From: an uncultured Gammaproteobacteria bacterium
GTDB taxonomy: Bacteria; Pseudomonadota; Gammaproteobacteria; SZUA-229
NCBI GenBank assembly: GCA_963847575.1
Contig: CAWKAL010000027.1
Coordinates: 1 to 61,145, forward strand
Reading direction: 5' to 3'
DNA length: 61,145 nt
Shown: piece after piece, positions 1,013 through 49,380 of the stretch
Position numbering within the stretch: the first letter of the stretch is position 1
Layout: every line of letters starts with the position of its first letter
The notes under the pieces: model-generated
What the model was told of the DNA's origin: nothing
Databases searched by the model: none
Seen by the model: the letters and a program-made list of their open reading frames with translations, nothing else
Program-made: the position numbers and the translations under genes

Positions 1013-1630
1013 GAGCGATGCCGGGCCGGCCTCCCTGACGACTGTGGTTTTTTTCCGGTGTCACGTCGTCTTGCAGGCGGGGGCGCCTCGAGACCAACCG
1101 CACGGTGCAGTGCAACGCTTTCCTGGCGGGTCAATGCCCGGAAATGGCCCGGGGGCAACGGGCGCGGCAAGACAAGCGGGCCGAAGCGGACACGGATCAG
1201 ACGGCTGACCTTCAGCCCCTGTGATTCCCACAGGCGGCGCACTTCACGGTTGCGCCCTTCCCTGAGCGTGACGTGATACCAGTGATTCACGCCGCTGCCC
1301 CCTGCATCCCGGATAGTAGTGAACGCGGCCGGGCCGTCCTCGAGCACGACGCCTCGCTGCAGGCGATCGAGGATCCCCGGTTGCACCCGGCCCGAGTATG
1401 CGCACGGCATATTCCCTTTCGATCTCTGAGGAGGGATGCATGAGACGATTGGCCAGTTCGCCATCGGTGGTGAGAATCAGCACACCCGCGGTGTTCATGT
1501 CGAGACGGCCCACCGCAACCCAGCGACCGGTCTTCATGCGCGGCAGCTTGTCGAAGACGGTCGGACGGCCGTCCGGATCCGAACGGGTGGTCAGTTCACC
1601 TACAGGTTTATGCGCTGCGTAACGTGGATG
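1009..1630 (-). pseudogene. rluB: RluB-type 23S rRNA pseudouridine synthase, 5'-truncated and frameshifted
   Basis: The 1244-1726 frame gives [66 protein letters not shown]. The 1009-1464 frame gives [58 protein letters not shown]. The frameshift lies near 1385-1400. The S4 domain is missing, and homology stops at about 1625. Confidence 0.8.
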
Positions 1631-2253
1631 CAAAACTTCGATTCGAGATGCGGCTGGAATTACCCAGGTTGTTGAAGGACCAGAATGCAACCGTGGTGTA
1701 CGTAACACAAGACTACAAGGAAGCAATGGCCCTGGGAGATAACATTGCGGTTATGAACCACCAGGGTATTCAACAGTTGGGGACACCAGAAGATATTTAT
1801 TTGACGCCTGTTCATATTGAGATTGCACGCCTGTTCGGTGATCCGGTAATCAACCTGCTGGATGTGCGTCCCGAGCAGGGTGAACATGGGGTTCAGGTTC
1901 GCTTATCGGACCAAATCCTGTCTATCGATCAACGGTTTGCATCCGTCGTAGGCAAGGAATGTGTGCTGGGTATTCGGCCGGAGTCAATTCAGTTTGTGGA
2001 TGCAGGAACACCCGGATCCTTTCCCGTGATGGTTGAGGCAGAAACCCCGCTGAATGAAAAGACAGTCACGCTAGCGCTAACCGCAAAAGGACGAGAGATC
2101 ATGGTTTCCCGCCCGGCTGGCAGCCCCGGACCCGCCAGTGGGTCCGCTCATGTAGCAGTGGATTTAAGCAACGTGCTGCTATTTGACAGAAAAAGTGGCG
2201 TACGAATAGACGCGCAAACACATTTCCAGGCGCAAGCGGGGCAAGTAGCATGA
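1612..2253 (+). pseudogene. ABC transporter ATP-binding protein, C-terminal fragment only (MalK/UgpC type)
   Basis: Starts inside the signature/Walker B region (..[45 protein letters not shown]) and is followed by a TOBE-like regulatory domain. Walker A and the Q-loop are absent. Confidence 0.8.
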
Positions 2254-3373
2254 GCGAGATCATGCTGAGACTTGAGAATGTGGACAAATTCTACGGGCCT
2301 ATTGATAAGGGTGTCCATGCGGTCAAGGATGTGAGTATTGAGGTCACCGAAGGGGACATCATTGCATTACTGGGTTCCTCCGGCTGTGGAAAAACCTCCA
2401 TCCTCCGGATGATCGCAGGCTTTGAAAGTACCAGTCGCGGTAAAATTCACCTGGCTGGCCGGAAGTACAAACACTCGCGCCGGTCAAACGTAACGTAGCC
2501 ATGGCTTTTGAAGGTTACTCTCTTTATCCCACCGTTTCGGTACAGGACAATATCGCATTTGCCTTGAAGGCATCCAGCCTGAACACCGGAGAGGTCTCCC
2601 GAAAAGTGAAGGAAATTGCCGAGATGCTGGAAATCACGGATATTCTCGATCGATTCCCTACGTCGATTTCCGGTGGTGAACAGCAGCGCGTCTCACTTGC
2701 CAGGGCGTTGATTCGTGAAGCAGATCTACATCTTCTAGACGAACCCATGGGCCAGTTGGAGCCGCAGCTTCGAACGCTGTTGCGAAGCCGCGTGAAGTAT
2801 TACATCAAAGAGCGCGGCCTTACCGCAATCCTGGTAACACACGACCAGACAGAGGCAAACGCCCTGGCCGACTGGATTGCCGTAATGGAAGACGGGGAAC
2901 TGCAACAGTATGCAAGCCCAGGGGAAATCAAGGACAAACCGGCCAACCTGTTTACCGGTACGTTTGTGGGAGAGCCGCCAATGAACGTGTTTCCTGCCAA
3001 GGTGTCGAGTAACGCCGGGCAGCTACACTTCGACCTTGACGGTGATCTTGCACTGGACTATGCGGAAGCCGCGTTTGCACCACAGGTCAGGGATCAGATA
3101 CTTGCGTTGCAAAATGTCGTGCTGGGTATCAGGCCCTATGCAGTTAAACGCCGCGGTGAAGGAGCCTCTGCGAAAGTCATAGCCAACCAGTGGTTGGGCG
3201 ATCAGACGCATATCGCTGCCGCGTTTGCCAATGGAACGATTGTATTGGTGGAGCATGACAGGGTGCAATTGGCTGATGGTGAATCGATTACCCTGCACTT
3301 TGAACCAGACGACCTGCACGTGTTTAATCCGGCCAACGGCAAAGCGGTTAGCCATGGGACGAGCTTGGCCTGA
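2250..3373 (+). pseudogene. ABC transporter ATP-binding protein (MalK/UgpC type), one frameshift near 2458
   Basis: Walker A GSSGCGKTS lies in ORF 2250-2498. After a 1-nt slip the alternative frame reads EVQTLAPVKRNVAMAFEGYSLYP and continues through ISGGEQQRVSLARAL and LHLLDEP in ORF 2501-3373. Confidence 0.85.
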
Positions 3374-10383: not shown

Positions 10384-11257
10384 CTACTGCTGTTCTCCAG
10401 CCTTACCCGCTTTCAGTATGAAAGTGGTGCCCCATGTATCGATGACAATACTACCCTCCAGTTGCGTATTGCCCTGAGCCACCAGGTCCTGCAAGGTATC
10501 GACCCGCCCGACTGATTCTGCCCATACGGCACGCGTAGCGGGCGAGTTCGCATAGTCCAGAACGCGCCTGCGTTGGCTGAGGAATTCGCTGTTCCACTCT
10601 TGTTCGCTGACTGTTGGATCATTCAGCACCGCGTTAGTCCGCTGGACAAGAGCGGGCAGCCCATCCGGATCGGGACCAAAGCCATGCTGAATCACAGTGT
10701 CATAAAGAATCAGCAACGTCAGTGGCTGTGTAGCTCCTAGCTTGCCGCTGTATTCAACCGCCCGATTGTAGTAAAGCGTATCAACCACCTCATCCTGGAT
10801 CTGATCGAAACAGCGCATCACCGGTGGCGATTTCCCACGCTGAACTCAGACCCGCCAGCGCACGGGTATCTGAACTTCCACTCCTGGCCAGTGACTTCAA
10901 TGACTTCAGAAACGGCTCCAGCACATTGCCGGGTGCCTGTTTGCTGTACAGCAATACCACTTCGTACATATCACCCGTGGCCGACGTAAAACCTGCTCGC
11001 CCGGCTGTAATACCTCGGCCGTCATCCAGCTCCTCTGCATAACCGTACTGCAAAACAGGTGTATTGTTCTCGAACACACTGATTATCTGGTCGGCAATCT
11101 GGCGCTGCGTCTCGGTAAACCGTACGCCCGGTGGACTCATCTCACTCGAGCATGCCGTACTTGCATACACGGCCAGCAGCACTGCGATAATACAAGCAAC
11201 CGTTCTGATTGAAGTTTCCCTGACCAGGAAACTTCCGAGCGAGAAACCCGAAGCCAT
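10384..11257 (-). pseudogene. GH46-type chitosanase (lipoprotein), one frameshift near 10805-10830
   Basis: N-part: FENNTPVLQYGYAEELDDGRGITAGRAGFTSATGDMYEVV. C-part: LYYNRAVEYSG..LILYDTVIQHGFGPDPDGLPALVQRTN ... RVDTLQDLV. These are colinear with the GH46 chitosanase core as I remember it. Signal with Cys (YASTAC). Confidence 0.75.
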
Positions 11258-11264
11258 TTGATTC

Positions 11265-12221
11265 TTATCGCTCGGAATCGATATCGGCAATTTCAATACT
11301 CTCGGGTGCAGGACTGGTAAGCACAGAACGAGTCAGCACCCCACCCTCGCCAACCTCGAGCAACACCGGGGCATAACGAGCATATAGCCCGGCATCCGCC
11401 GGTTTACCGGTGATAACGGCATCCCTGAATCGCCACCAATCGGCCATGCTGCCGACGGTGTCCACATACACCTCGTCATCCTCAGAGACGGTTCTAGCCA
11501 GATACTTTGTCACCTCGAACAGCTCTATCTGATCCATGAACTGTGTATGCAAACTAAAGCTGAACAAGCTATGTGCTTCCCGAATCCAGTCCAGTTCATC
11601 CTGCATGCGGGCAATCGACTTTTTCTTGCCGAGTTTCAGATCGTGCCACAGGTAGAAATCATCGGTGATGCCACGAGGAAACGACACGATGGATTTGTCA
11701 TGCCCCACCGCTCGCTTGATATGTGGTACCTGTGTCACCGTGGAGTTTTCGGCAAACAGGTGCGTCAGGCCGACATTCGCCATGGCCGAAAGAGTATTGG
11801 CGTCATGCGCCTCGGTTGGTGGCCTGAAGCCTGTGGGAACTTGTCCGGTGATTTCCGCAACTACCTTCATGCAGCGCGCCAGTCGCTCTACCTGCCCCTC
11901 CAGCGAATAGCGGGGCATGATGTCATGACTGTCACCGTGACAGGCCATTTCACCGGTCCTGGCCAGTTCACGGGTAATGGCTCGATTGTTGTTGGCCAGG
12001 TTCGACAACACATACCATGTAATCGGCAGTCCCAGTTCACCAAAGAAATCGGATACCTCCCTGGCATTTTGATAACCATCCTCGGTATCTTCTTCAAAGA
12101 AGGCGGCGTAACGTCGTCCCTCGGGCCACGTGGCTAATCCACTGAACTGCTGCTCGGTACCATAACGCACGATACCCGCCAGCAGGCTATCGAAACGTGC
12201 TTTTTCATCACCCTCCATCAT
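11265..12221 (-). CDS. polysaccharide deacetylase (NodB-homology) family protein
   Basis: 318 aa. MACHGDSHD (HxxxH-type metal motif), FRPPTEAHD, an acidic EEDTEDG segment in place of TFDD. No signal peptide is visible. Confidence 0.7.
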   Translation of the reverse strand: MMEGDEKARFDSLLAGIVRYGTEQQFSGLATWPEGRRYAAFFEEDTEDGYQNAREVSDFFGELGLPITWYVLSNLANNNRAITRELARTGEMACHGDSHDIMPRYSLEGQVERLARCMKVVAEITGQVPTGFRPPTEAHDANTLSAMANVGLTHLFAENSTVTQVPHIKRAVGHDKSIVSFPRGITDDFYLWHDLKLGKKKSIARMQDELDWIREAHSLFSFSLHTQFMDQIELFEVTKYLARTVSEDDEVYVDTVGSMADWWRFRDAVITGKPADAGLYARYAPVLLEVGEGGVLTRSVLTSPAPESIEIADIDSER

Positions 12222-17750: not shown

Positions 17751-20063
17751 GTGCCGGAGATCATGCGCAGCACACCGCGTTGGTGCGTATGGCGATACAT
17801 ACAGAAGAAAGGCAAGTTGAAGCCCGACAAAGTCCCGTGTGATGCCAGCGGCAAGCTCGTGGGGTATGGCGAGGCCGGGACAATGGCCTTCGACGACGCA
17901 GTTGCCCGCTTCAAATCGGACCCGAACATGTTCGCTGGCATCGGCCTCGCCCTGTCACCAGACGACGACATTCAGTGCATCGACCTGGACCGCGTTATCC
18001 AGCGCGCCGAAGGCAAGGCAAGCATCGCGGACGCAGATGCCGAACGTATCGTCAAGCAGGCGAGGGCAGAGGGCGCCTGGACCGAAATCAGCCCCTCGGG
18101 TATTGGCCTCCACATCTGGGTTCGTGGGCAGTTGTCCGGCAGCCCTTCGTCAAAACAGACGGGGCATAATGGCGCAGTCCTCGAGGCGTTCAGCTCGGGC
18201 CGATTCATCGCAGTGACGGGCAAGCAGTTGGGCGCCACTGGTGGTGTAGTTTACTCACAAGGCCTCATCGACACGACGCTCGACGCGATCAAGCGGCGTG
18301 GTGGCAACGTCACATCAGCACCACCGGCTACTGATGATGACTTTTTCGAAGAGGCCTCGGTTGACGGGCCATCAGCCAAAGTTACTCAGCGCCGGATGTT
18401 TTCAAAGACACCAACAACCTGAGCGCGGGGATTGAAGCGTCCCGGTGGGACTCCCTGCCTGGTGAGGACAAGGACAAACTGCTCGCCATCATCCTCGCAG
18501 CTGCTCCAAAAAAGGCGTGGTTCAACAAGCCTAATGGCGGCGGCATCGACCCTTGGCTGACGTTGCTTTCAGGCCGCAGCGCGCTCGGGGGCTCCTCGTG
18601 CCTACGAGATATTCCGTGCCTTCTCATATAAAGACGGCGACCCGCGCACTGGCTTTAACGAGAGGGAGATACGAAGCCGCTGGCAGAACGCCCTCAAGAC
18701 AGCGGATGACCCCAAGGCAGTCACCATTGGCAGCCTTATTCGCTATGCCAGGGAGTGGATACCCGAGTGGTCCTGGGATTCCTGGGGCCAGTCCAAGCCA
18801 GCTTTGGTACAGAAGTCCACAGGGGGCGGCACAGACCTTTTCAACGAGCCGGCCATAGGAGAGACCCGTACGCCCGAAGAAAGGCACACGAGCCTCTTCG
18901 ACACAGCGAAGCCCCTATCGGTTCGTGACGCCATGGCCCCGCCGCCCCGTGACTGGGTGGTCGATGACCACTTTGCAGCGGGCACGCTGGCCGTCCTGGG
19001 CGGCTTCGGCGGCACCAGTAAGACCATGCTGGCACTGCAACTCGGCGTCGGCCTTGCCATCGCCCACAAGCCGCACAAGCCCTACCACACCGCCCCAGCC
19101 GTGGCCGCAGGGATGGACATCCCCAAAGCTGGCAACTCACTCATCATTCTGGGGGAGGAAGACGCTGGGGAGCGTGACCGCCGTGTGGGGGCTATCCACC
19201 AACACATCACCGAGGGCTATCCGAACTTCGTCAAACGCCGCTACCTGAACCTTATTAAGAAGCACTGCGAGACCATCCCCGCTGCCGGTAGGCGGATTTC
19301 TCTGACTAAGCTGGCGAACGGCAACCTGACCTGGACCCCTCTGGTTCAGGACACTATCGACCGTGCAAAATCCCTCGCGGCCAAAACCGGCAGCCCAACC
19401 CGCCTGATTGTTTTCGACCACGCACGTCTGATCGCCGGTGGGGGCGAACTGAACAGCGCCGAAGACGCCACGGTATTGACAACGGCCCTGACCCACATCG
19501 CCCAGGAGACCGGCGCTTGTGTCCTGCTACTGGCGCACAGCCCCAAGTCCAGCATGGGCGACGCTGGGAAGAACGCCGACCACGGCTCAATCGCACACTC
19601 CACGGCGTTCGTGGACAACGCTCGTGCTGCCTTCGTCCTACGGACGATGGACGAGAAAACCGCCGCCAAACTCGACCTCGGCAGCAAGGACCGACACTCT
19701 TTCGTGCAGTTGATGACGGTGAAGAACAACTACGCCGGATACCAAGAGCACTGGCTCGAGCGAGTCAGCATCTCCAGCCACCACGTCAGCCTGCTGGATA
19801 GCTGGGATGCCCCGATGAAGCAGAAAGACACTGGTCCGTCGCAGCAGGATGTGGCGGACGACGCCATGGCCCGACAAATAGCCAGAGATTTGGTGGCCAA
19901 GTCACCCGGCCGCTGGACGGCCACGAAGCTAAAGGAAGAGGTGAAGGCGCAGGCCAAACTGCCACAGCGCGATGCTAACCGAGTGGTTGATGACATGCTC
20001 GATGGGGGAGAGCTGGCGTCACGGACGATCACTCAGGAGGATCGCAAAGCATACCGTCGTTAG
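17751..20063 (+). pseudogene. fused primase-polymerase (prim-pol) / primase C-terminal region / AAA_25 RepA-DnaB-like helicase, with two compensating frameshifts
   Basis: Prim-pol: RWCVWRY..KPDKVP..GIGLAL..IQCIDLDRV..WTEISPSGIGLHIWVRG..GRFIAVTG. Linker, read in another frame between about 18365-18420 and the G5 run at 18587-18591. Helicase: WVVDDHFAAGTLAVLGGFGGTSKTMLALQLG (Walker A), LIVFDHARL (Walker B), CVLLLAHSPKS. Confidence 0.75.
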
Positions 20064-42530: not shown

Positions 42531-42572
42531 AAAAAACAGGGGCGATGCATTTGCATTCGCCCCTGTTTTTTG
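42531..42572. terminator. bidirectional intrinsic terminator
   Basis: An A7 run, a 12-bp stem CAGGGGCGATGC/GCATTCGCCCCTG, then T6, lying between convergent genes. Confidence 0.6.
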
Positions 42573-42604
42573 TAACGTGCTAATCGTAAAGAATAATTAG
42601 CGGT

Positions 42605-43024
42605 TTATCGCATTCTGTTTTTGTTCATGCGTTCTTCAGATTCTTTGCGGCGTTCTTCAGCCATCTTCTGCATTTCTTCGCTATTTTTGTTCATACGTTC
42701 TTCAGATTCTTTGCGACGTGCTTCAGATTGCTGCTGCATTTCTTCGCGCGTCATCGGTTTATATTCTGAATCTTTATCACCGCTACGTGAAGCTTCACGA
42801 TTTTTCTTCATTTCCTCTTTGCGGGCATTACGCTCTTCTTCCCTGGCCTGCTTGCGAGCTTCGTGTTCCTGCTTGCGTTTTTCTCGTTCGGCCTCAACTT
42901 CGGCCTGGCGATTTTTGACCCATTCGGGTTTTTCCGGCGTGGCAGGTGGGTCAATCGCGAGGGCAAACTGGCTGAAACTGGCGGTAAACAGCGCAGCCAG
43001 AACGAGGGTTAAAAATTTTGACAT
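42605..43024 (-). CDS. secreted Lys/Glu/Arg-rich repeat protein
   Basis: Signal MSKFLTLVLAALFTASFSQFALA. Internal repeat ARRKESEERMNKN x2 and a charged helical composition. Confidence 0.6.
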   Translation of the reverse strand: MSKFLTLVLAALFTASFSQFALAIDPPATPEKPEWVKNRQAEVEAEREKRKQEHEARKQAREEERNARKEEMKKNREASRSGDKDSEYKPMTREEMQQQSEARRKESEERMNKNSEEMQKMAEERRKESEERMNKNRMR

Positions 43025-43124
43025 TTGATGTGCTCCGTTAGTCGGTATTTAATGTGGGCGCTATTACGCCATAAACGGCCCTGTTCTACCATTGATTTCT
43101 ATCATGAAATGGCTAATTACCGCC

Positions 43125-43169
43125 GAAAACACAAATAAAGCGGGCGCGATGGCCTGAGCCACCGCGCCC
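43125..43169 (-). terminator. rho-independent terminator (minus strand)
   Basis: 11-bp stem GGGCGCGATGG/CCACCGCGCCC with one mismatch, followed on the minus strand by GCTTTATTTGTGTTTTC. Confidence 0.5.
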
Positions 43170-43312
43170 TAGCAGCGCATGATTGCCGCTAAACTGTTTG
43201 GAAATCTGTGCAACTGATGTATCCAGACTCCCTAGATTCGCAATCATGCCAGGCGTTCAGTCAGCGTCCCGGTTCAGCAGGGAGGACGCTTTATCAAACT
43301 GTGCCTCAACTA

Positions 43313-43933
43313 TCAGCTCTTTTCAGCTTGAGTTGCAGGTGCAGCTTCAGTCGTACGCGCTTCATTCATTTTCTTCATGAATTCTTCGTGACGTTTTTCT
43401 GATTCTATGCGACGCTCGTCCATCAGCTTTCTCATTTCAGCACGACGTGCTTCGATTTCTGCCGGTAACTGGAAAGGAGCAGGTGCAGCGTAGGCAGGCG
43501 CTGGCTGCTGCTGGACGTTCTTCATGAACTCAGCGTGACGCTCATAGGCTTCTTTCTGGGCTTTTTCAAACGCGGCCTGCTGGGCTTTCATCTGCTCTTC
43601 TGTCAGCGCAGGTGGCGGCGCATAGGCGTATGGGCCATAGCCATTCTGGTAACCGTTGTAACCACGGTATTCGTTGACACCACGGTAACTGTTGTAGCCC
43701 GAGCCATTACCACGACCGTGACCACGACCGCTCATGTTGAATGAGAAGCTGGAATCGAAATCGCCATCAACGTCACCGGAACCGGAACCGGAACCATCGC
43801 TGTATCCATAGCCATCACCGCGATAGTTGTTATCGTTATAACCATTGTCATTGTCGAAAGGTCCCCACCATGCGTTTGCCGATGTGGATACAGTGAGTAC
43901 AGCGATTGCTGCGATTGTGTTAAGAGTTTTCAT
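43313..43933 (-). CDS. secreted Gly/Tyr-rich (sulfur-globule-protein-like) module fused to a charged helical C-terminal module
   Basis: [82 protein letters not shown], then EEQMKAQQAAFEKAQKEAYERH...RRAEMRKLMDERRIESEKRHEEFMKKM. A GAGG RBS favours the second ATG. Confidence 0.6.
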   Translation of the reverse strand: MKTLNTIAAIAVLTVSTSANAWWGPFDNDNGYNDNNYRGDGYGYSDGSGSGSGDVDGDFDSSFSFNMSGRGHGRGNGSGYNSYRGVNEYRGYNGYQNGYGPYAYAPPPALTEEQMKAQQAAFEKAQKEAYERHAEFMKNVQQQPAPAYAAPAPFQLPAEIEARRAEMRKLMDERRIESEKRHEEFMKKMNEARTTEAAPATQAEKS

Positions 43934-44316
43934 GTTTTGCCTCATTTAATTGTGTGTACAGCTAAGTTTCATGCGCTTCTGATTCTGACGAATCAAGGAG
44001 TATTATAATATTAGAAAACAATAATATTGTCAATGTATATGGGCGTTGCAAGGGTCTAGCCTGTGATAGAGACCAGCAGTTTTTTACTTGAATTGCACTG
44101 TTCAGCTATTAAGAATCTTTACGCAATGATCTGCATGGCAGTGAAAGCACGGCAACGGGTTTGCTAGAAATAGCCTGTCTGGATTGTCGAGGATCCTGGA
44201 GATATTATCGCTAACAACAGTCGAATGTGTTTGCTCAGTTGCATTCCAGGCTGAGGGGGTAGTTGAGGGGAACCAGCTCAATAGGTGAATTCAGGTTTGT
44301 TTGCCAATCTGGAACC

Positions 44317-44353
44317 GAAAAAAAGCTGGCCACCGTAAGGTGGCCAGCTTTTT
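44317..44353 (-). terminator. rho-independent terminator (minus strand)
   Basis: AGCTGGCCACC-GTAA-GGTGGCCAGCT, with T7 following on the minus strand. Confidence 0.6.
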
Positions 44354-44374
44354 ATGCTAAATACTGAAACAGTA

Positions 44375-44785
44375 TTATTTAGCTGGAGCTGCTGCAGGCG
44401 GCGCTTGTGGCGCTGCATACGGGCCAGGACCATAACCAGGACCAGGACCATAACCGTAGCCTGGGCCAGGACCGTAACCACGGTTATAACGGTTATAACC
44501 GTCATAACCACGGTAGTCATTGTAGCCTGAGCCATAGCCGGAACCACGGTAGCTGTTGTTACCACGGCCAGAACCACGACCTGAACCACGACCGCTCATA
44601 CCAAATGAGAAATCGCCATCCATATCACCGGAACCGTCACCATAGCCATCGCCGTAGCCATCGCCATAACCAGAGCCGCGGTTATCCCAACGACCTGAAT
44701 TGTTGCCATTGTCGCCCCACCATGCATTAGCGGAGGTAGAAGCAACAAGAATTGCAGCAGCTGCAAGTACTTTCAAAGTTTTCAT
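44375..44785 (-). CDS. secreted Gly/Tyr-rich protein (sulfur-globule-protein-like)
   Basis: MKTLKVLAAAAILVASTSANA-WWGDNGNN..GYGDGYGDGYGDGSGDMDGDFSFGMSGRGSGRGSGRG..GYGPGPGYGYGPGPGYGPGPYAAPQAPPAAAPAK. Confidence 0.6.
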   Translation of the reverse strand: MKTLKVLAAAAILVASTSANAWWGDNGNNSGRWDNRGSGYGDGYGDGYGDGSGDMDGDFSFGMSGRGSGRGSGRGNNSYRGSGYGSGYNDYRGYDGYNRYNRGYGPGPGYGYGPGPGYGPGPYAAPQAPPAAAPAK

Positions 44786-45043
44786 GTAATTAAGTCCTCA
44801 TCGAGAGAATGAATACAATGGCAACTTAGCATGACTTGCAACCGGGTTGGTATAAACAAACGTCTATAAGTACATCGGCAGCTCACATGGGCAGTTAGCC
44901 ATGAACGAGCAATACTAAAACTGTTGTCGACGCGTGTAAACAACCATTTGAGCGGTGCGTTAAAGCAGATTAGCACGGAAGAGTTCCGTCATGCTGCGGT
45001 ATTTCTGGCAGAATGAATGGTTATTGACGCATGTCAATAATGC

Positions 45044-45068
45044 AAAAGCCGGGATTCACCCGGCTTTT
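45044..45068. terminator. small bidirectional hairpin terminator
   Basis: AAAA-GCCGGG-ATTCA-CCCGGC-TTTT. Lies 3' of the minus-strand gene ending at 45101. Confidence 0.45.
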
Positions 45069-45100
45069 GTTAACACTTGCCTGCCATTGTGTGGCGGTGG

Positions 45101-45955
45101 TTAGATTCGCTCGAGGCTACGATCACGGGCTTCCTGCATGCGTTTTATGGATGCGGCACGCATTTCGTAAGCATCCTGATTACGTACGCGCATCTGCTCG
45201 ATAATGTCCTGTTGACGTGTAATTTGCTGGCGCATCATTTCAATCATTTTTTGCTGACTGGCTTTGAAGTTTTCGAGACTCCTGGTGTCGAGGGAATCAA
45301 GGTAACTGTTGCGATCTGCAATACGTGCCTGCATGGATGCTTTTAAAGAATCAATTCTTGAAACAGGTGTCAGGCTACTGGCAGCTGCCTGGCTGGGAGT
45401 CTGCTTCGGTTGTGTGCTACTGGTTACGATCTGCTCAGATGGTTGTAACTGAGCAGTCGCAGTATCTTCAGCTTTTGCAACAACTTCAACTGCGATGCTT
45501 GTAGCTGGGGAAGTGCCAGTGCCAGTGCCAGTGCTAGTGTCACTATCTTGCGTTTGTGTTGCCTCGACTGGCGCATTCACTTCGATGGCATTTGCTGTCT
45601 CAACAGTTTGATTGCCATGGTTGATTTCCTCGGCAGTTGTTGCATCGGTATCAGCGACCAGGTTCTCAGCATCATCTGCTGCAGCTGCAAACTCGGATAC
45701 AGTGTCTGTTTCAGCCTGGTTTGTTTCGGCTTCAATTAACTCGTTGGCATCAGCAAGTTCAGCTTTAAGGCTGGCTATGTCCTGGTCAATTGTATTGAGC
45801 TCACGATCAAGCATAATTGTAGTGGTAACAATGATGCTTGCCATAATGACGGCGACTGCAGCATATTTAGCCAGGGGCGCAAGGATTAGCTTAGCGTCGT
45901 TACTTTTTTGTTCAGCAGTTTGTGCTTCGTTATCATTATTATTTTCAATGGTCAT
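45101..45955 (-). CDS. single-pass membrane protein with acidic Thr/Ala/Glu-rich linker and charged coiled-coil C-terminus
   Basis: 284 aa. TM helix YAAVAVIMASIIVTTTIML. C-terminus KASQQKMIEMMRQQITRQQDIIEQMRVRNQDAYEMRAASIKRMQEARDRS resembles the charged modules of 42605-43024 and 43313-43933. Confidence 0.55.
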   Translation of the reverse strand: MTIENNNDNEAQTAEQKSNDAKLILAPLAKYAAVAVIMASIIVTTTIMLDRELNTIDQDIASLKAELADANELIEAETNQAETDTVSEFAAAADDAENLVADTDATTAEEINHGNQTVETANAIEVNAPVEATQTQDSDTSTGTGTGTSPATSIAVEVVAKAEDTATAQLQPSEQIVTSSTQPKQTPSQAAASSLTPVSRIDSLKASMQARIADRNSYLDSLDTRSLENFKASQQKMIEMMRQQITRQQDIIEQMRVRNQDAYEMRAASIKRMQEARDRSLERI

Positions 45956-46094
45956 TTTTATACCTGATAAAGAGTTAGGTGGCAGCTAGCCTGTATATGA
46001 TGAATCTTTACGATGGCAATAGTTAAATACTTGACAACCACTGGCCATCAGCATCTCAGCCATTAGAGGCCGGTCAGCGCGTTTTGTTTCAATA

Positions 46095-46487
46095 TTATTT
46101 ATTTTGCGCGGGCGCCGCAGGTGCTACAGGTGCGGGCCTGGCTCCGTAGGGTGCATAGCCATACGGTGGAGGTGCATAACCGTAGGGTGCATAACCATAT
46201 GGGCGATACCCATAACCGTTATAACCGCGATAATAATTATTACCATAACCACGGCCATAGCCGCGCCCAACACCATCGCCTCGGCCACGACCTGACGCGC
46301 GTGCTTTCACTGTGAAAGTGAAATCAGCATCGCCAAACATATCGCCCAGGAAATCGCCAAACAGGTCATTATCCCAGCTGTTGTTTCCATAACCGCGGTG
46401 CCGATCATTATCAAATGGTCCCCAGGCACTGGCTGAGGTTGATATGGTGAGTACAACTGCTACAGCTATTAATTTGAATATGTTCAT
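46095..46487 (-). CDS. secreted Gly/Tyr-rich protein (sulfur-globule-protein-like)
   Basis: [100 protein letters not shown]. Confidence 0.6.
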
Positions 46488-46743
46488 TACATAAGCCTCG
46501 TATCAGTAGTCAGCAAATCTTGATGCGCCCGGGCTGAATCAGCCAGAAAACATACTATTAAAGAATCCAGATGCGTTCAACCGCCCATCGCCCGGCTGGC
46601 GCCCAGAGCAACACTATAATCGAAATTACGACACCAGCGGCTCATGTTAACGCCTAATTATGCTGCTGATGTAACTGATCAATACAAGTTTGACGGGTAT
46701 CAAGAACTGCACTGTCACGCTGGCGAAACCTCATTGAACAGAC

Positions 46744-46778
46744 AAAAAAAAGCCGGACACCTGCGTGTCCGGCTTTAT
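46744..46778 (-). terminator. rho-independent terminator (minus strand)
   Basis: AGCCGGACAC-CTGC-GTGTCCGGCT, with T8 on the minus strand. Confidence 0.6.
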
Positions 46779-46798
46779 TCACTATTGTGCGACCTGTA

Positions 46799-47182
46799 TT
46801 ACTTGGTTTCAGTGACAGGAGCAGCTGGAACCTGTGCAGGTGCTACTGGCGCATAGCCATATGGAGCGTAGCCATGTGGGCCGTAACCATTCTGGTAACC
46901 ATTGTAACCACGGTAGTCATTGTAGCCATAGCCATTACCACGACCTTCGCCACGACCGTGACCACGACCAGATGCTTTCATGCCGAAATTGAAGCTGGAG
47001 TCAAAATCACCATCAACGTCACCAGAACCATCGCTATAGCCATTGCCATAACCATTGCCTGAACCATTGTTGTAGCCATTGTTGTAACCATCATCATTCC
47101 AGTCGAACGGACCCCAGAACGCGTTAGCTGATGTAGAAGCAGCGAGTATTGCAGCAGCAGCGATTGCTTTAAAAGTTTTCAT
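46799..47182 (-). CDS. secreted Gly/Tyr-rich protein (sulfur-globule-protein-like)
   Basis: [112 protein letters not shown]. Confidence 0.6.
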
Positions 47183-47351
47183 TTCATTTCCTCAAATAGA
47201 GTTAAACAGCTTGTTTCATGCGCTTGGCCAGTACGACCAATGGCGAAAGTATATTATCAAATTCTAATATTGTCAATTACTAATATAGAGGAAAGTTCAA
47301 TCACCTTATTCACTTTTTTAACTTACTTGTTATTATTCAGTAAGATACAAG

Positions 47352-48785
47352 TTAAATTTTAATCTGCTCGGCGTAATTGATGAGCGCTTCGAGCATCACC
47401 AGTTGCATTCCAGTGGTGTCCGGAGCTGCTTGCAGGGTTTCAATATCGGCGAGGAAACGGTTCAGGGTGCGTGGGCTGGCGGCCGGGTCGGTAAAACGCT
47501 GGTGCCTGTAGGCGTCCCATGTTTCGCGTTCCCGGGGACTCAAAGTGTGCGGATAGTTGCGTGCCCGGTAGCGGAACAGCATTTCAGGCAGGCGTTTGTC
47601 GTCGAATGTCAGGTTCAGGCTGGAAAGGTCTTCAGCGCGGCTGTTGCGGATAGTGTCCATGCGTGCATTATCAGCATCACTGAAAAAGCCGCCTGAATAG
47701 AGTTGTAGATCAGGATCCGTTGTCGCTGGAAATGCCTGGTCGGAAAATATCGCCCGGGTCTTTGCTGCCAGCGAGTCGATATGTTCGAGCAGCAAAGATC
47801 GATGCTGCTCACACTCATCGATATTTATGTTTAATCGCTCTGCGCTTGCGGCGTCCATGGTTTTGAGCGGCACCACCACCGGGCATTTGTTCAGGTGTAC
47901 GACTTTGAGGGGGATGCGCGGCGCGTCCTCGGGCAACTCGGCAGCGCGGGTATAGAGTCGGGCGGCTATTTCTTCTGCATCAGTCGCAATGAAATCATCA
48001 GGCGAAGTTGCCAGGTCATAGACCACGACGCCGTTTTTATTCACCGGGTGCATGCAAATCGGCATGACCATTGCAATTGCGCCACGCTCGGCCGAATAGC
48101 GTGATGAAGCATGCAGTGCCGCCTCGTGGGTGCGTAAATTCAGCAGGGCGCTCACTGCCTGTTTTTTTCTGAGTGGATACATATAGTCGTACAGCCGCGG
48201 CTGTTTTTCACGAATCAGTTTCGCCAGTGCAATCGTTGCATACACATCTGACATTGCATCATGCGCGGCCTCGTGCGAAATGTTGTTCGCTGCAGTCAGC
48301 AGTTCGAGTCGGATACTCGGATAGCCGCTATCGTCCTTCGGCCATTCGATACCCTCGGGGCGCAGTGCGCGTGTCAGGCGTACGATATCGATCAGGTCCC
48401 AGCGCGAATTACCGTGTTGCCATTCGCGGGAATACGGATTGAAAAAATTCCGGTACAACGTGTTGCGGGTAAATTCATCATCAAACCGAATATTGTTATA
48501 GCCGGCAACGCAGGTGCCCGGGCGGGAAAATTCGCGGTGAATGCTCGCAATGAATTCGGCTTCTACAAGGCCTTCAGCAAGTGCTTTTTGCGGCGTGATG
48601 CCGGTCACCATGCAGGCATACGGATCCGGTAATACGTCATCGGCAGGTTTGCAGAAAATCACCAGTGGATCACTAATGATGTTCAGGTCTTCATCTGTGC
48701 GCAGACCGGCGAACTGAACAATACGGTCCTGTCGTGGATCAATGCCGAAGGTTTCGTAGTCGTACCAGTAGATGCTGTTGCTCAT
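47352..48785 (-). CDS. sbcB: exodeoxyribonuclease I
   Basis: 477 aa. YWYDYETFG (DEDD ExoI motif), NNIRFDDEFTR, HDAMSDVYATIALAKL. Confidence 0.9.
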   Translation of the reverse strand: MSNSIYWYDYETFGIDPRQDRIVQFAGLRTDEDLNIISDPLVIFCKPADDVLPDPYACMVTGITPQKALAEGLVEAEFIASIHREFSRPGTCVAGYNNIRFDDEFTRNTLYRNFFNPYSREWQHGNSRWDLIDIVRLTRALRPEGIEWPKDDSGYPSIRLELLTAANNISHEAAHDAMSDVYATIALAKLIREKQPRLYDYMYPLRKKQAVSALLNLRTHEAALHASSRYSAERGAIAMVMPICMHPVNKNGVVVYDLATSPDDFIATDAEEIAARLYTRAAELPEDAPRIPLKVVHLNKCPVVVPLKTMDAASAERLNINIDECEQHRSLLLEHIDSLAAKTRAIFSDQAFPATTDPDLQLYSGGFFSDADNARMDTIRNSRAEDLSSLNLTFDDKRLPEMLFRYRARNYPHTLSPRERETWDAYRHQRFTDPAASPRTLNRFLADIETLQAAPDTTGMQLVMLEALINYAEQIKI

Positions 48786-48800
48786 GTTTCGTCCCTGTGG

Positions 48801-49207
48801 TTAGCGTGATGTCAGTCGTCGGTAAATGTCAGATACGTTTAATGGCAGTTGTGCACTATCATCTATTACTGCGTAGTTTGCAGCAGCGTACATGTGCGGT
48901 AAATAATCGCGCGCGGTTTCATCGATGCTGATGCAGAACGAATGTATTCCCTGTTGCCGGGCTTCGTACAGTGCCTGGCGTGTATCTTCAACCCTGTATT
49001 CGCCGCGACAGGTATCGTAATCATCGGGTGTGCCGTCAGACAGGGTGATCAGCAGCGGGTTTTGCCGCAACCGGTCGGCCCTTTGAGCAATACCGGCAGG
49101 CATTACGCATAGGCGGCTTCGAATACCGCGATTTCTTCACCCACGGGCTGATAATAAGGCTCATCTTTGACGAAGTATTCTTCGGGCTTGAGGGCTTTGG
49201 ATTGCAT
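48801..49207 (-). pseudogene. deletion scar: 5' end of a cbbQ/norQ-type AAA+ gene fused to the 3' end of a cbbO/norD-type VWA gene
   Basis: From the ATG at 49207: MQSKALKPEEYFVKDEPYYQPVGEEIAVFEAAYA, then (shifted) MPVLLKGPTGCGKTR, the MoxR-type Walker A. From about 49050 the other frame reads LLITLSDGTPDDYDTCRGEYRVEDTRQALYEARQQGIHSFCISIDETARDYLPHMY...IYRRL, which is the NorD/CbbO C-terminus. Confidence 0.6.
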
Positions 49208-49380
49208 ATTTTCAGCACACGGGTGAATTTAAACGACCGGCTATTTCAACAAATCACGGCGGGCTTGTCGAATCAACCCGGCTGATTATATAAAGCCACA
49301 CATACCCAAGGTGATTGTATGTGTATGTCTCAGGGTGCGCGTTGTAATATGCGCCAAACATATTTCAGGATAGCCTTTCC

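Follow-up and report, generated by a model that had tools for sequence, protein, structure and literature searches.

Four tandem genes on the minus strand of a 61 kb contig stretch from an uncultured gammaproteobacterium (contig CAWKAL010000027.1; the window) encode secreted glycine- and tyrosine-rich proteins, here named P1 to P4, which most likely are structural sulfur globule proteins (Sgp) coating periplasmic globules of zero-valent sulfur; we put the probability of this reading at about 0.78. All four exceed the gathering score of the Pfam family PF17228 ('SGP, Sulphur globule protein'; 26.7 bits), with 46.8 bits for P3, 46.6 for P4, 30.0 for P1 and 29.5 for P2. This supports the Sgp reading, and we accept, from profile scores and shared motifs, that the four proteins belong to the Sgp family. 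The cluster is larger than these four genes: a membrane protein gene (TMcc, 45101-45955) and a helical protein gene (KE139, 42605-43024) complete a six-gene unit, whose genes span 42605-47182 and which, with its flanking signals, occupies 42531-47276.

The Sgp family forms the periplasmic envelope of sulfur globules, with paralogues that are partly redundant: SgpA and SgpB are interchangeable, and SgpC governs globule expansion (PMC10386293; PMC8877833). In Allochromatium vinosum the proteins are small (11-13 kDa) and Gly/Tyr-rich, carry a Sec signal to the periplasm, and are each encoded with their own promoter and terminator (PMC10386293; PMC8877833). Among purple sulfur bacteria, the sulfur-storing Chromatiaceae have Sgp, whereas the sulfur-excreting Ectothiorhodospiraceae and Halorhodospira are without it (PMC8877833). 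Genomes hold one to six sgp genes (PMC10386293), those of Chromatiaceae one to five (PMC8877833). The four window proteins are thus ordinary family members whose copy number lies within the published range, and an annotation pipeline would label each of them 'sulfur globule family protein'. A previous model-made reading of the window, the sequence-only reading, had taken the set to go beyond those described; this fails for copy number but stands for the clustering and the helical fusion, which were not found described in the literature searched. Beyond the searchable literature, the conserved multi-gene cluster, an Sgp-helix fusion with stand-alone relatives, a membrane-anchored partner and a leader/cluster-end RNA motif appear to be new.

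The globule envelope has so far been dissected in essentially one organism, A. vinosum, and the cluster extends the family to abundant, uncultured marine-sediment Gammaproteobacteria. It provides a compact candidate parts list, with two accessory families that lack annotation and are conserved beside sgp in about 30 genomes. A hairpin and an invariant 9-mer, with one complementary copy in each cluster, make sgp regulation testable, and cluster and RNA motif together could mark intracellular sulfur storage in metagenome-assembled genomes (MAGs).

Architecture and family membership of P1 to P4

The four minus-strand open reading frames (ORFs) proposed earlier are all present, with one start refined. 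P4 (46799-47182; 127 aa) has a mature chain of 106 aa, 11.2 kDa and pI 4.6 and matches PF17228 at E 6.5e-12; P3 (46095-46487; 130 aa; E 5.6e-12) is the divergent, basic member, with a mature pI of 9.1, and its match covers positions 2-88 of the 93-position model. P2 (44375-44785; 136 aa; mature pI 6.3) has the highest glycine content (31%). P1 (43313-43933; 206 aa) matches PF17228 over residues 26-119 and consists of an Sgp core (residues 22-108) followed by a charged two-helix module (about 112-196). The P1 ORF reaches 43945; the ATG at 43933, with GAGG 8 nt upstream, is the better start, since the longer version would begin within this ribosome-binding site. Across the paralogues the pI takes values of 4.3, 4.6, 6.3 and 9.1.

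The proteins share a layout that runs from signal peptide to tail. As assessed by eye, the signal peptide comprises 21 residues: its n-region contains K, its hydrophobic core spans 13 aa, and positions -3 to -1 read A-N-A or A-S-A, the peptide ending STSANA in P1, P2 and P4 and STSASA in P3. The mature chains begin WWGPFD (P1), FWGPFD (P4), WGPFD (P3) or WWGD (P2) and continue into an acidic G/D/Y/N half, in which D/E number 8-9 vs 1-4 K/R. A GDF..F.F.M..SGRG.GRG box, fully kept in P1 and P4 and degenerate in the other two, is followed by G/Y/N/R repeats and by a C-terminal end in which YAPYGYAP with a Pro/Ala tail is clear in P3 and P4, with YAYAPPP in P1 and GPGPGYG in P2. The plan, previously called strict, is therefore common to all four, but P2 and P3 keep it without keeping every motif. 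In pairwise local alignments the mature cores score z = 13-24 against 500 composition-preserving shuffles. Mature sizes are 11.2-12.0 kDa, with 20-31% Gly, 12-14% Tyr and no Cys; P1 is larger (20.7 kDa) because of its fused helical module. Short in-frame tandem repeats (6-66 bp) run throughout the cluster genes (42618-47091).

Searches for relatives bear out the Sgp identity that had been proposed from composition and layout. A single-sequence search with P4 gave 37 relatives, with homologues 56-71% identical to it, and a profile search gave 211; among the matches listed, nearly all carry PF17228 and nearly all are metagenomic. Among those with names are 'sulfur globule protein CV1' from the Solemya velum gill symbiont and the Seepiophila jonesi endosymbiont, a protein of the Lamellibrachia satsuma symbiont, and entries labelled 'sulfur globule family protein' by PGAP. 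P1 to P4 and the Sgp-annotated symbiont proteins have the same order of motifs: signal peptide, W-G, acidic block, F.F.M, RG block and tail. An exact-sequence look-up of P4 returned no record, and an NCBIfam scan of the six cluster proteins returned no family, with only a weak, compositional Asr-like match for KE139.

The closest known counterparts are SgpA and SgpB of A. vinosum (CV1 and CV2; Alvin_1905 and Alvin_0358; PF17228), which likewise have a Sec signal and a repetitive, Gly/Tyr-rich chain and occur as several partly redundant paralogues. The mature SgpA and SgpB measure 12.6-13 kDa, compared with about 11-12 kDa in the window, and the features that set the window proteins apart are the W(W)GPFD N-terminus, the acidic-then-basic charge layout and one helical extension. 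Whereas the A. vinosum sgp genes have distant locus tags, those of the window stand in tandem in one 4.7 kb cluster, and the window host, unlike A. vinosum, is an uncultured and apparently non-phototrophic gammaproteobacterium of marine sediment. SgpC (CV3, Alvin_1325), itself divergent and needed for globule expansion, can be likened to the divergent, basic P3 by analogy only. The regular spacing of glycine and aromatic residues in Sgp is also seen in glycine-rich structural proteins such as cytoskeletal keratins and plant cell-wall GRPs (PMC10386293), a likeness of composition without homology.

The sgp genes are under coding constraint. A sister-strain contig from an independent sediment metagenome (run X2, about 95% identical) covers the entire region, and the indels listed inside its ORFs are all multiples of three (-12 in P1, -9 in P2, +12 in the TMcc gene), while those of 1 nt are all intergenic; this pattern refers to the indels listed, besides which 16 further ones exist. 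Codon usage is biased to GGT (55%), CGT (67%), GCT/GCA and CCT/CCA, with a GC3 of 0.41 vs 0.59 in neighbouring housekeeping genes, which is compatible with high expression; foreign origin would fit too.

We envision the following assembly. Cleavage of the Sec signal after ANA or ASA would release a Cys-free, disordered, Gly/Tyr-rich chain of about 11-12 kDa with an N-terminal Trp or Phe-Trp, and such chains would together form a thin protein envelope on globules of zero-valent sulfur during the oxidation of sulfide or thiosulfate. The acidic N-terminal half and the basic RG block would give each chain a charge dipole that could promote electrostatic stacking and lateral self-assembly, with the Tyr/Pro-rich tail possibly directed towards the sulfur. 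Paralogues of differing charge may co-assemble and may have partly separate roles, as do SgpA/B and SgpC in A. vinosum.

Partner genes and the sbcB-yggS island

The helical module fused to P1 has a stand-alone relative at the end of the cluster. KE139 (42605-43024, minus strand) is a charged, helical protein of 139 aa whose Sec signal ends ..FALA ahead of IDPP; it contains a 22-aa tandem repeat (66 bp x2, 42618-42747), and its N-terminal PEKPEWVKN..AEREKR is the repeat unit of long fusions found in four related loci (L027, L028, L035 and L040). The module consists of two helices joined by a Pro-rich linker and ends ..RR..E.RH.EFMKK..; in an AlphaFold2 model of P1 the helices cover residues 112-141 and 158-196, and the Sgp core is disordered. 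Fusion of Sgp to the helical module occurs in about 20 of 126 Sgp homologues, with a conserved junction PAxE(M/L)TEEQ, and the P1 orthologue P0005 is 99% identical across the module. One such fusion is solitary, in an unrelated genomic context (CP070738.1), and many related clusters encode the module as a separate protein with a signal peptide of its own. Profile-profile comparison by hhalign of fused and stand-alone modules (probability 94%, E 1.2e-7) indicates that the two forms are homologous. A profile search with the module found 74 proteins, all unnamed or 'hypothetical' and all from metagenomes or MAGs; among them, no Pfam model covers the module outside Sgp fusions.

The layout of the P1 C-terminal module and of KE139 recalls SgpD (Alvin_2515, UniProt D3RP35), a Sec-exported, globule-bound protein with two confident AlphaFold helices, low-confidence Pro-rich loops and a mature N-terminal Trp. 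SgpD is reported to be the most abundant globule protein of A. vinosum and to be nearly confined to the Chromatiaceae (PMC10386293). A sequence link between the two was sought and not found: in the module profile search, which needs shared 5-residue words, none of the 74 proteins came from Allochromatium or from a named organism. Given this and the narrow distribution of SgpD, the likeness is an analogy at best. By that analogy, the helical module in P1 and KE139 could plausibly fill the role of the helical SgpD and contribute an outer or scaffold layer.

The second partner, TMcc (45101-45955, minus strand; 284 aa), has a short N-terminal tail, one transmembrane (TM) helix (GPLGKYAvvAViMVSIIVTTAIML), a linker and a C-terminal helix. 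The linker, about 100 aa long, is acidic, Thr/Glu/Ala-rich, disordered and poorly conserved, and the C-terminal 85 or so residues, ending NRI, are well conserved. AlphaFold2 models the latter part as a single 87-residue helix (197-283, pLDDT >96) behind the disordered linker. From the charges beside the TM helix, +2 before it and -2 after it, we predict that the N-terminus lies inside and the C-terminus outside, in the periplasm. TMcc homologues are present in 24 related clusters; a HMMER scan of 1.84 billion representative proteins found 121 clusters, of which none of ten sampled carried a name, and Pfam gave no match. The hypothesis that the C-terminal helix of TMcc is homologous to the helical module was rejected (hhalign probability 1-4%). 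The long periplasmic helix of TMcc could anchor globules to the cytoplasmic membrane or nucleate them there. A second bitopic membrane protein, 250-490 aa long and built from an N-terminal tail, a TM helix, an acidic linker and C-terminal charged helices, is also encoded in most related clusters (for example L010 15424-16434, L027 15483-16274 and L040 15136-15891); it was searched for in the window and is absent there.

The genomic setting was compared in 80 related loci from species-representative genomes, fetched with the neighbouring sbcB (exonuclease I, 47352-48785). The close relatives are all MAGs of uncultured Gammaproteobacteria, some labelled Thiotrichaceae or Thiotrichales; sequencing runs that hold the window DNA are sediment and marine-sediment metagenomes, and one related cluster (L081) lies on a contig from a hydrothermal-vent metagenome. 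A common backbone runs spoU, suhB, bolA, [rlmM, cbbQ/norQ-like, cbbO/norD-like], sbcB, [island] and yggS, and continues beyond yggS with an aminotransferase gene, an M18 peptidase gene, an NAD kinase gene and ispG. In 30 of the 80 loci, one to six Sgp-like ORFs lie between sbcB and yggS on the sbcB strand; 24 of these 30 also have a TMcc homologue, and complete clusters have a helical-module gene as well. Sgp ORFs about as divergent as P3 recur in most of the related clusters. Elsewhere sbcB directly adjoins yggS (L007, L013, L046, L076) or opgGH takes the place of the cluster (L002, 11545-15718); the sbcB-yggS interval is a variable island. Locus L001, a 96% match, ends at sbcB.

Upstream of sbcB, the cbbQ/cbbO scar noted in the sequence-only reading is a true deletion remnant, although its assignment is ambiguous between CbbQ and NorQ. 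A 100-aa ORF (48801-49103, minus strand) is what remains of the C-terminus of a CbbO/NorD-like VWA protein some 700 aa long; it is 75-86% identical to the C-terminus of the 700-715 aa ORFs of relatives. Where relatives have rlmM, an AAA+ gene of the CbbQ/NorQ type (CbbQ_C/AAA_5) and a full VWA gene, the window and L001 have both lost rlmM, the AAA+ gene and the greater part of the VWA gene through a shared deletion of about 3.9 kb (in the 48786-49380 region).

Transcription signals, sgp leaders and the cluster-end element

For three of the four sgp genes, a promoter-like site and a terminator of their own can be recognised, so that most window genes resemble those of A. vinosum in this respect. 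A consensus scan on the minus strand placed TTGACA-17-TATACT ahead of P4 (47248-47276) and TTGACA-17-TATTAT ahead of P1 (44005-44033), each matching the sigma-70 consensus at 11 of 12 positions; TTGAC(T/A)TATATTAG..TAATATA, in the same layout as the P4 promoter, lies upstream of sgp genes in related loci. Intrinsic terminators follow P4 (46749-46776, minus strand; a 12-bp stem, then a T-run), P2 (44318-44350, minus strand; AAGCTGGCCACC-ttac-GGTGGCCAGCTT-TTTTT) and P1 (hairpin 43142-43169). The claim that each gene has its own terminator thus holds for these three but not for P3, which has no recognisable terminator before the TMcc gene, 139 nt downstream, and is probably co-transcribed with it. 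The TMcc gene has its terminator at 45044-45064 (minus strand; GCCGGG-tgaat-CCCGGC-TTTT); this one and that of P2 were identified by reading the sequence. KE139 (minus strand) and yggS (plus strand) have a terminator in common at 42531-42565, likewise identified from the sequence, with T-runs on each side.

The regions upstream of P4 and P1 share AAGCGCATGAAAC, which forms part of a conserved leader. The P4 leader (47213-47245, minus strand) contains the hairpin TTGGTCG-tac-TGGCCAA (47240-47224), the 9-mer AGCGCATGA (47224-47216) and a second box, GCTGT; the P1 leader (43966-44001, minus strand) contains the hairpin TTGATTC-gtca-GAATCAG and the same 9-mer (43977-43969). Across related loci the order is a near-consensus promoter, a covarying hairpin of 4-8 bp, the invariant 9-mer (AGCGCAUGA in the RNA), often a box 2, (UU)GCUGU, and a ribosome-binding site. 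The 9-mer precedes 55 of 96 Sgp ORFs and occurs 96 times in 1.26 Mb, against about 10 expected; of 54 distinct leaders, about 46 have the hairpin 0-5 nt before the 9-mer (mean z -2.4), and box 2 lies within 45 nt downstream in 31 of 55, vs 11% in background.

The stems vary in sequence and keep their pairing (GGUC/GRCC, GAUUC/GAAUC, GGUUC/GAACC, GAUCC/GGAUC). In an alignment of 39 leaders, 94.4% of cells are paired vs 84% after shuffling, a level that none of 500 shuffles reached; double changes occur in 28 cells vs 9 expected, and slid controls pair at 10-47%. A covariance model built on the leader (R1) scores 40.2 bits at P4 (E 1.2e-8) and 37.8 bits at P1 (E 6.7e-8) and gives about 60 matches at E <0.01 in loci L006-L045 and the window, all on the sgp strand inside sgp clusters. 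It has no match in any cluster-less locus, nor at P2 or P3. Rfam holds no family for the leader or for the cluster-end element described below, a gathering-threshold scan of the whole window having returned tRNAs only. Two other explanations of the motif were considered. A DNA recombination or cassette site is unlikely, since a conserved -35/-10 pair precedes the motif, the stems covary in a way that keeps pairing only, and no integrase or recombinase was seen among the cluster genes; the AUG inside AGCGCAUGA is unsupported as a leader-peptide start, the resulting ORFs having about 4-25 codons, no conserved frame and no Shine-Dalgarno sequence.

Every complete cluster carries a single inverted copy of the leader at its yggS-proximal end. 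In the window this element (43132-43206, readable on either strand) lies between P1 and KE139 and combines the hairpin 43142-43169 with the 25-nt block CCCTAGCAGCGCATGATTGCYGC. The hairpin has 9-12 bp and covaries at five pairs, and the block is nearly unchanged in 19 sequences (23 invariant columns) from loci whose SbcB is about 66-73% identical to that of the window. A second covariance model (R2), which scores 80.6 bits in the window, matches exactly once in every one of 20 sources that carry a cluster, and nowhere else (for example L027 17464-17538 and L010 17344-17418). A permissive Rfam scan of 43000-43400 gave matches at chance level only (E >= ~1).

Read on the yggS strand, the element resembles a leader with boxes 1 and 2 joined. 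Read on the sgp strand, it presents GCGGCAAUCAUGCGCUGCUA, a hairpin and a U-rich tail (in full, ...CAGCAAUCAUGCGCUGCUA, hairpin, GCCUUUUAUUU), and its block is a perfect complement of both leader boxes, directly before the intrinsic terminator of P1. We slightly prefer the sgp strand, because the conserved A-run beyond the hairpin would make sense only as the U-tail of a terminator. The duplex predicted between block and leader reaches -27.9 kcal/mol for P4, vs -14.8 ± 3.1 for shuffled leaders, and -21.8 kcal/mol for P1, vs -12.6 ± 3.2. The element may therefore be a small RNA (sRNA) or a seed within a 3' untranslated region (3'UTR), and an exact complement of the leaders placed before the cluster-end terminator suggests mRNA stabilisation, coordinated control by base pairing, or both.

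Both parts have possible counterparts in Gammaproteobacteria, where a stem-loop at the very 5' end stabilises transcripts, as in the ompA leader, and where 3'UTR-derived sRNAs of the CpxQ/DapZ type act by base pairing. The sgp leaders likewise place a hairpin at the predicted 5' end of mRNAs for abundant structural proteins. The cluster-end element, known here from sequence, likewise has a conserved single-stranded block directly before an intrinsic terminator, complementary in this case to the sgp leaders. P4 and P1 would thus be expressed from near-consensus promoters through a leader of hairpin and AGCGCAUGA, the hairpin serving to stabilise abundant mRNAs, and the cluster-end element could coordinate the sgp mRNAs.

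Taken further, the island would be a self-contained 'sulfur-globule organelle' module, made up of an Sgp shell, the coiled-coil tether TMcc (with a second one in relatives), a helical scaffold replacing SgpD, and post-transcriptional control by a cluster-end sRNA that arose through inverted duplication of a leader. Such an sRNA, whether derived from a 3'UTR or independent, would pair through its seed CAGCAAUCAUGCGCU with the leader boxes AGCGCAUGA ... UUGCUG, its UCAUGCGCU being the counterpart to the leader AGCGCAUGA. We regard this full extension as speculative, with perhaps one chance in a handful of being right as a whole.

Competing explanations and other features of the window

Several observations count against P1 to P4 as sulfur globule proteins in the functional sense. 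No sox, dsr, sqr, fcc, apr or soe gene was found in the scanned ORFs of the window, so that the storage of sulfur by the host is a prediction; the scar near sbcB lends autotrophy weak support, given that the CbbQ family also covers NorQ/NorD and NirQ and that no RuBisCO gene is adjacent in relatives. P1 and P2 clear the PF17228 cut-off by just ~3 bits, in a low-complexity family, and A. vinosum SgpA, SgpB and SgpC are not among the 120 matches listed from the profile search. The window proteins are hydrophilic (GRAVY -1.0 to -1.3), whereas those of A. vinosum are called extremely hydrophobic (PMC10386293). Relatives with 75-81% SbcB identity and DNA past sbcB (L002, L003, L013, L046) are without the cluster at this site, which makes it dispensable or mobile. 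In two metatranscriptomes, the only matching fragments belong to other strains and are less than 90% identical. Gene neighbourhood and sequence logic are the basis of the roles proposed above for TMcc, for the helical module and for the RNA motif.

Some of these observations would fit a different role for true PF17228 members, namely that they coat another periplasmic or extracellular deposit, or form a general Gly/Tyr-rich envelope or matrix, in a host without intracellular sulfur. The missing sulfur-oxidation genes and the cluster-less closest relatives agree with such a role, and the function of the family has been tested in Allochromatium and Thiocapsa only (PMC10386293, PMC8877833). We nevertheless consider it improbable: all relatives that have a name either belong to thiotrophic symbionts or are annotated as Sgp, the presence of the family follows intracellular sulfur storage in purple sulfur bacteria (PMC8877833), and the window DNA comes from sediment and marine-sediment metagenomes, with a related cluster on a hydrothermal-vent metagenome contig.

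Smaller still is the chance that the proteins are compositional look-alikes, an unrelated secreted low-complexity family that reaches the PF17228 cut-off through its richness in Gly, Tyr, Asn and Arg. The narrow margins of P1 and P2 and the lack of an NCBIfam match would suit this explanation, and the core, disordered in AlphaFold2, offers no fold by which to arbitrate. P3 and P4, however, score 46-47 bits (E ~6e-12) even with the HMMER bias correction, P3 over nearly the whole model; the fixed order of motifs is common to the Sgp-annotated symbiont proteins, and a profile built from Sgp-like proteins recovers almost only PF17228 proteins.

That the ORFs are spurious products of short tandem DNA repeats and no real genes at all, as a region rich in 6-36 bp repeats with overlapping ORFs in other frames might suggest, is effectively refuted by conservation and indel pattern (orthologues in about 30 genomes, listed sister-strain indels inside ORFs all in-frame), besides the Pfam matches and the presence of signal peptides, Shine-Dalgarno sites, promoters and terminators.

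Three further features lie elsewhere in the window. Between about 12800 and 20100 the G+C content is 0.55-0.61, vs about 0.50 beyond, almost no genes are recognisable, and the only domain match is AAA_25 at 18804-20063; this stretch may be a degraded mobile element. The ORFs at 1624-3373 and 10790-11296 give partial Pfam matches (an ABC_tran match that starts at profile position 65, two fragments of the MalK OB-fold and one half of a GH46 domain), which suggests frameshifts, pseudogenes or assembly errors. A tRNA cluster at 58610-61087 comprises Pro-TGG, His-GTG, Lys-CTT and Leu-TAG, together with a borderline tRNA-like match at 58610-58681.

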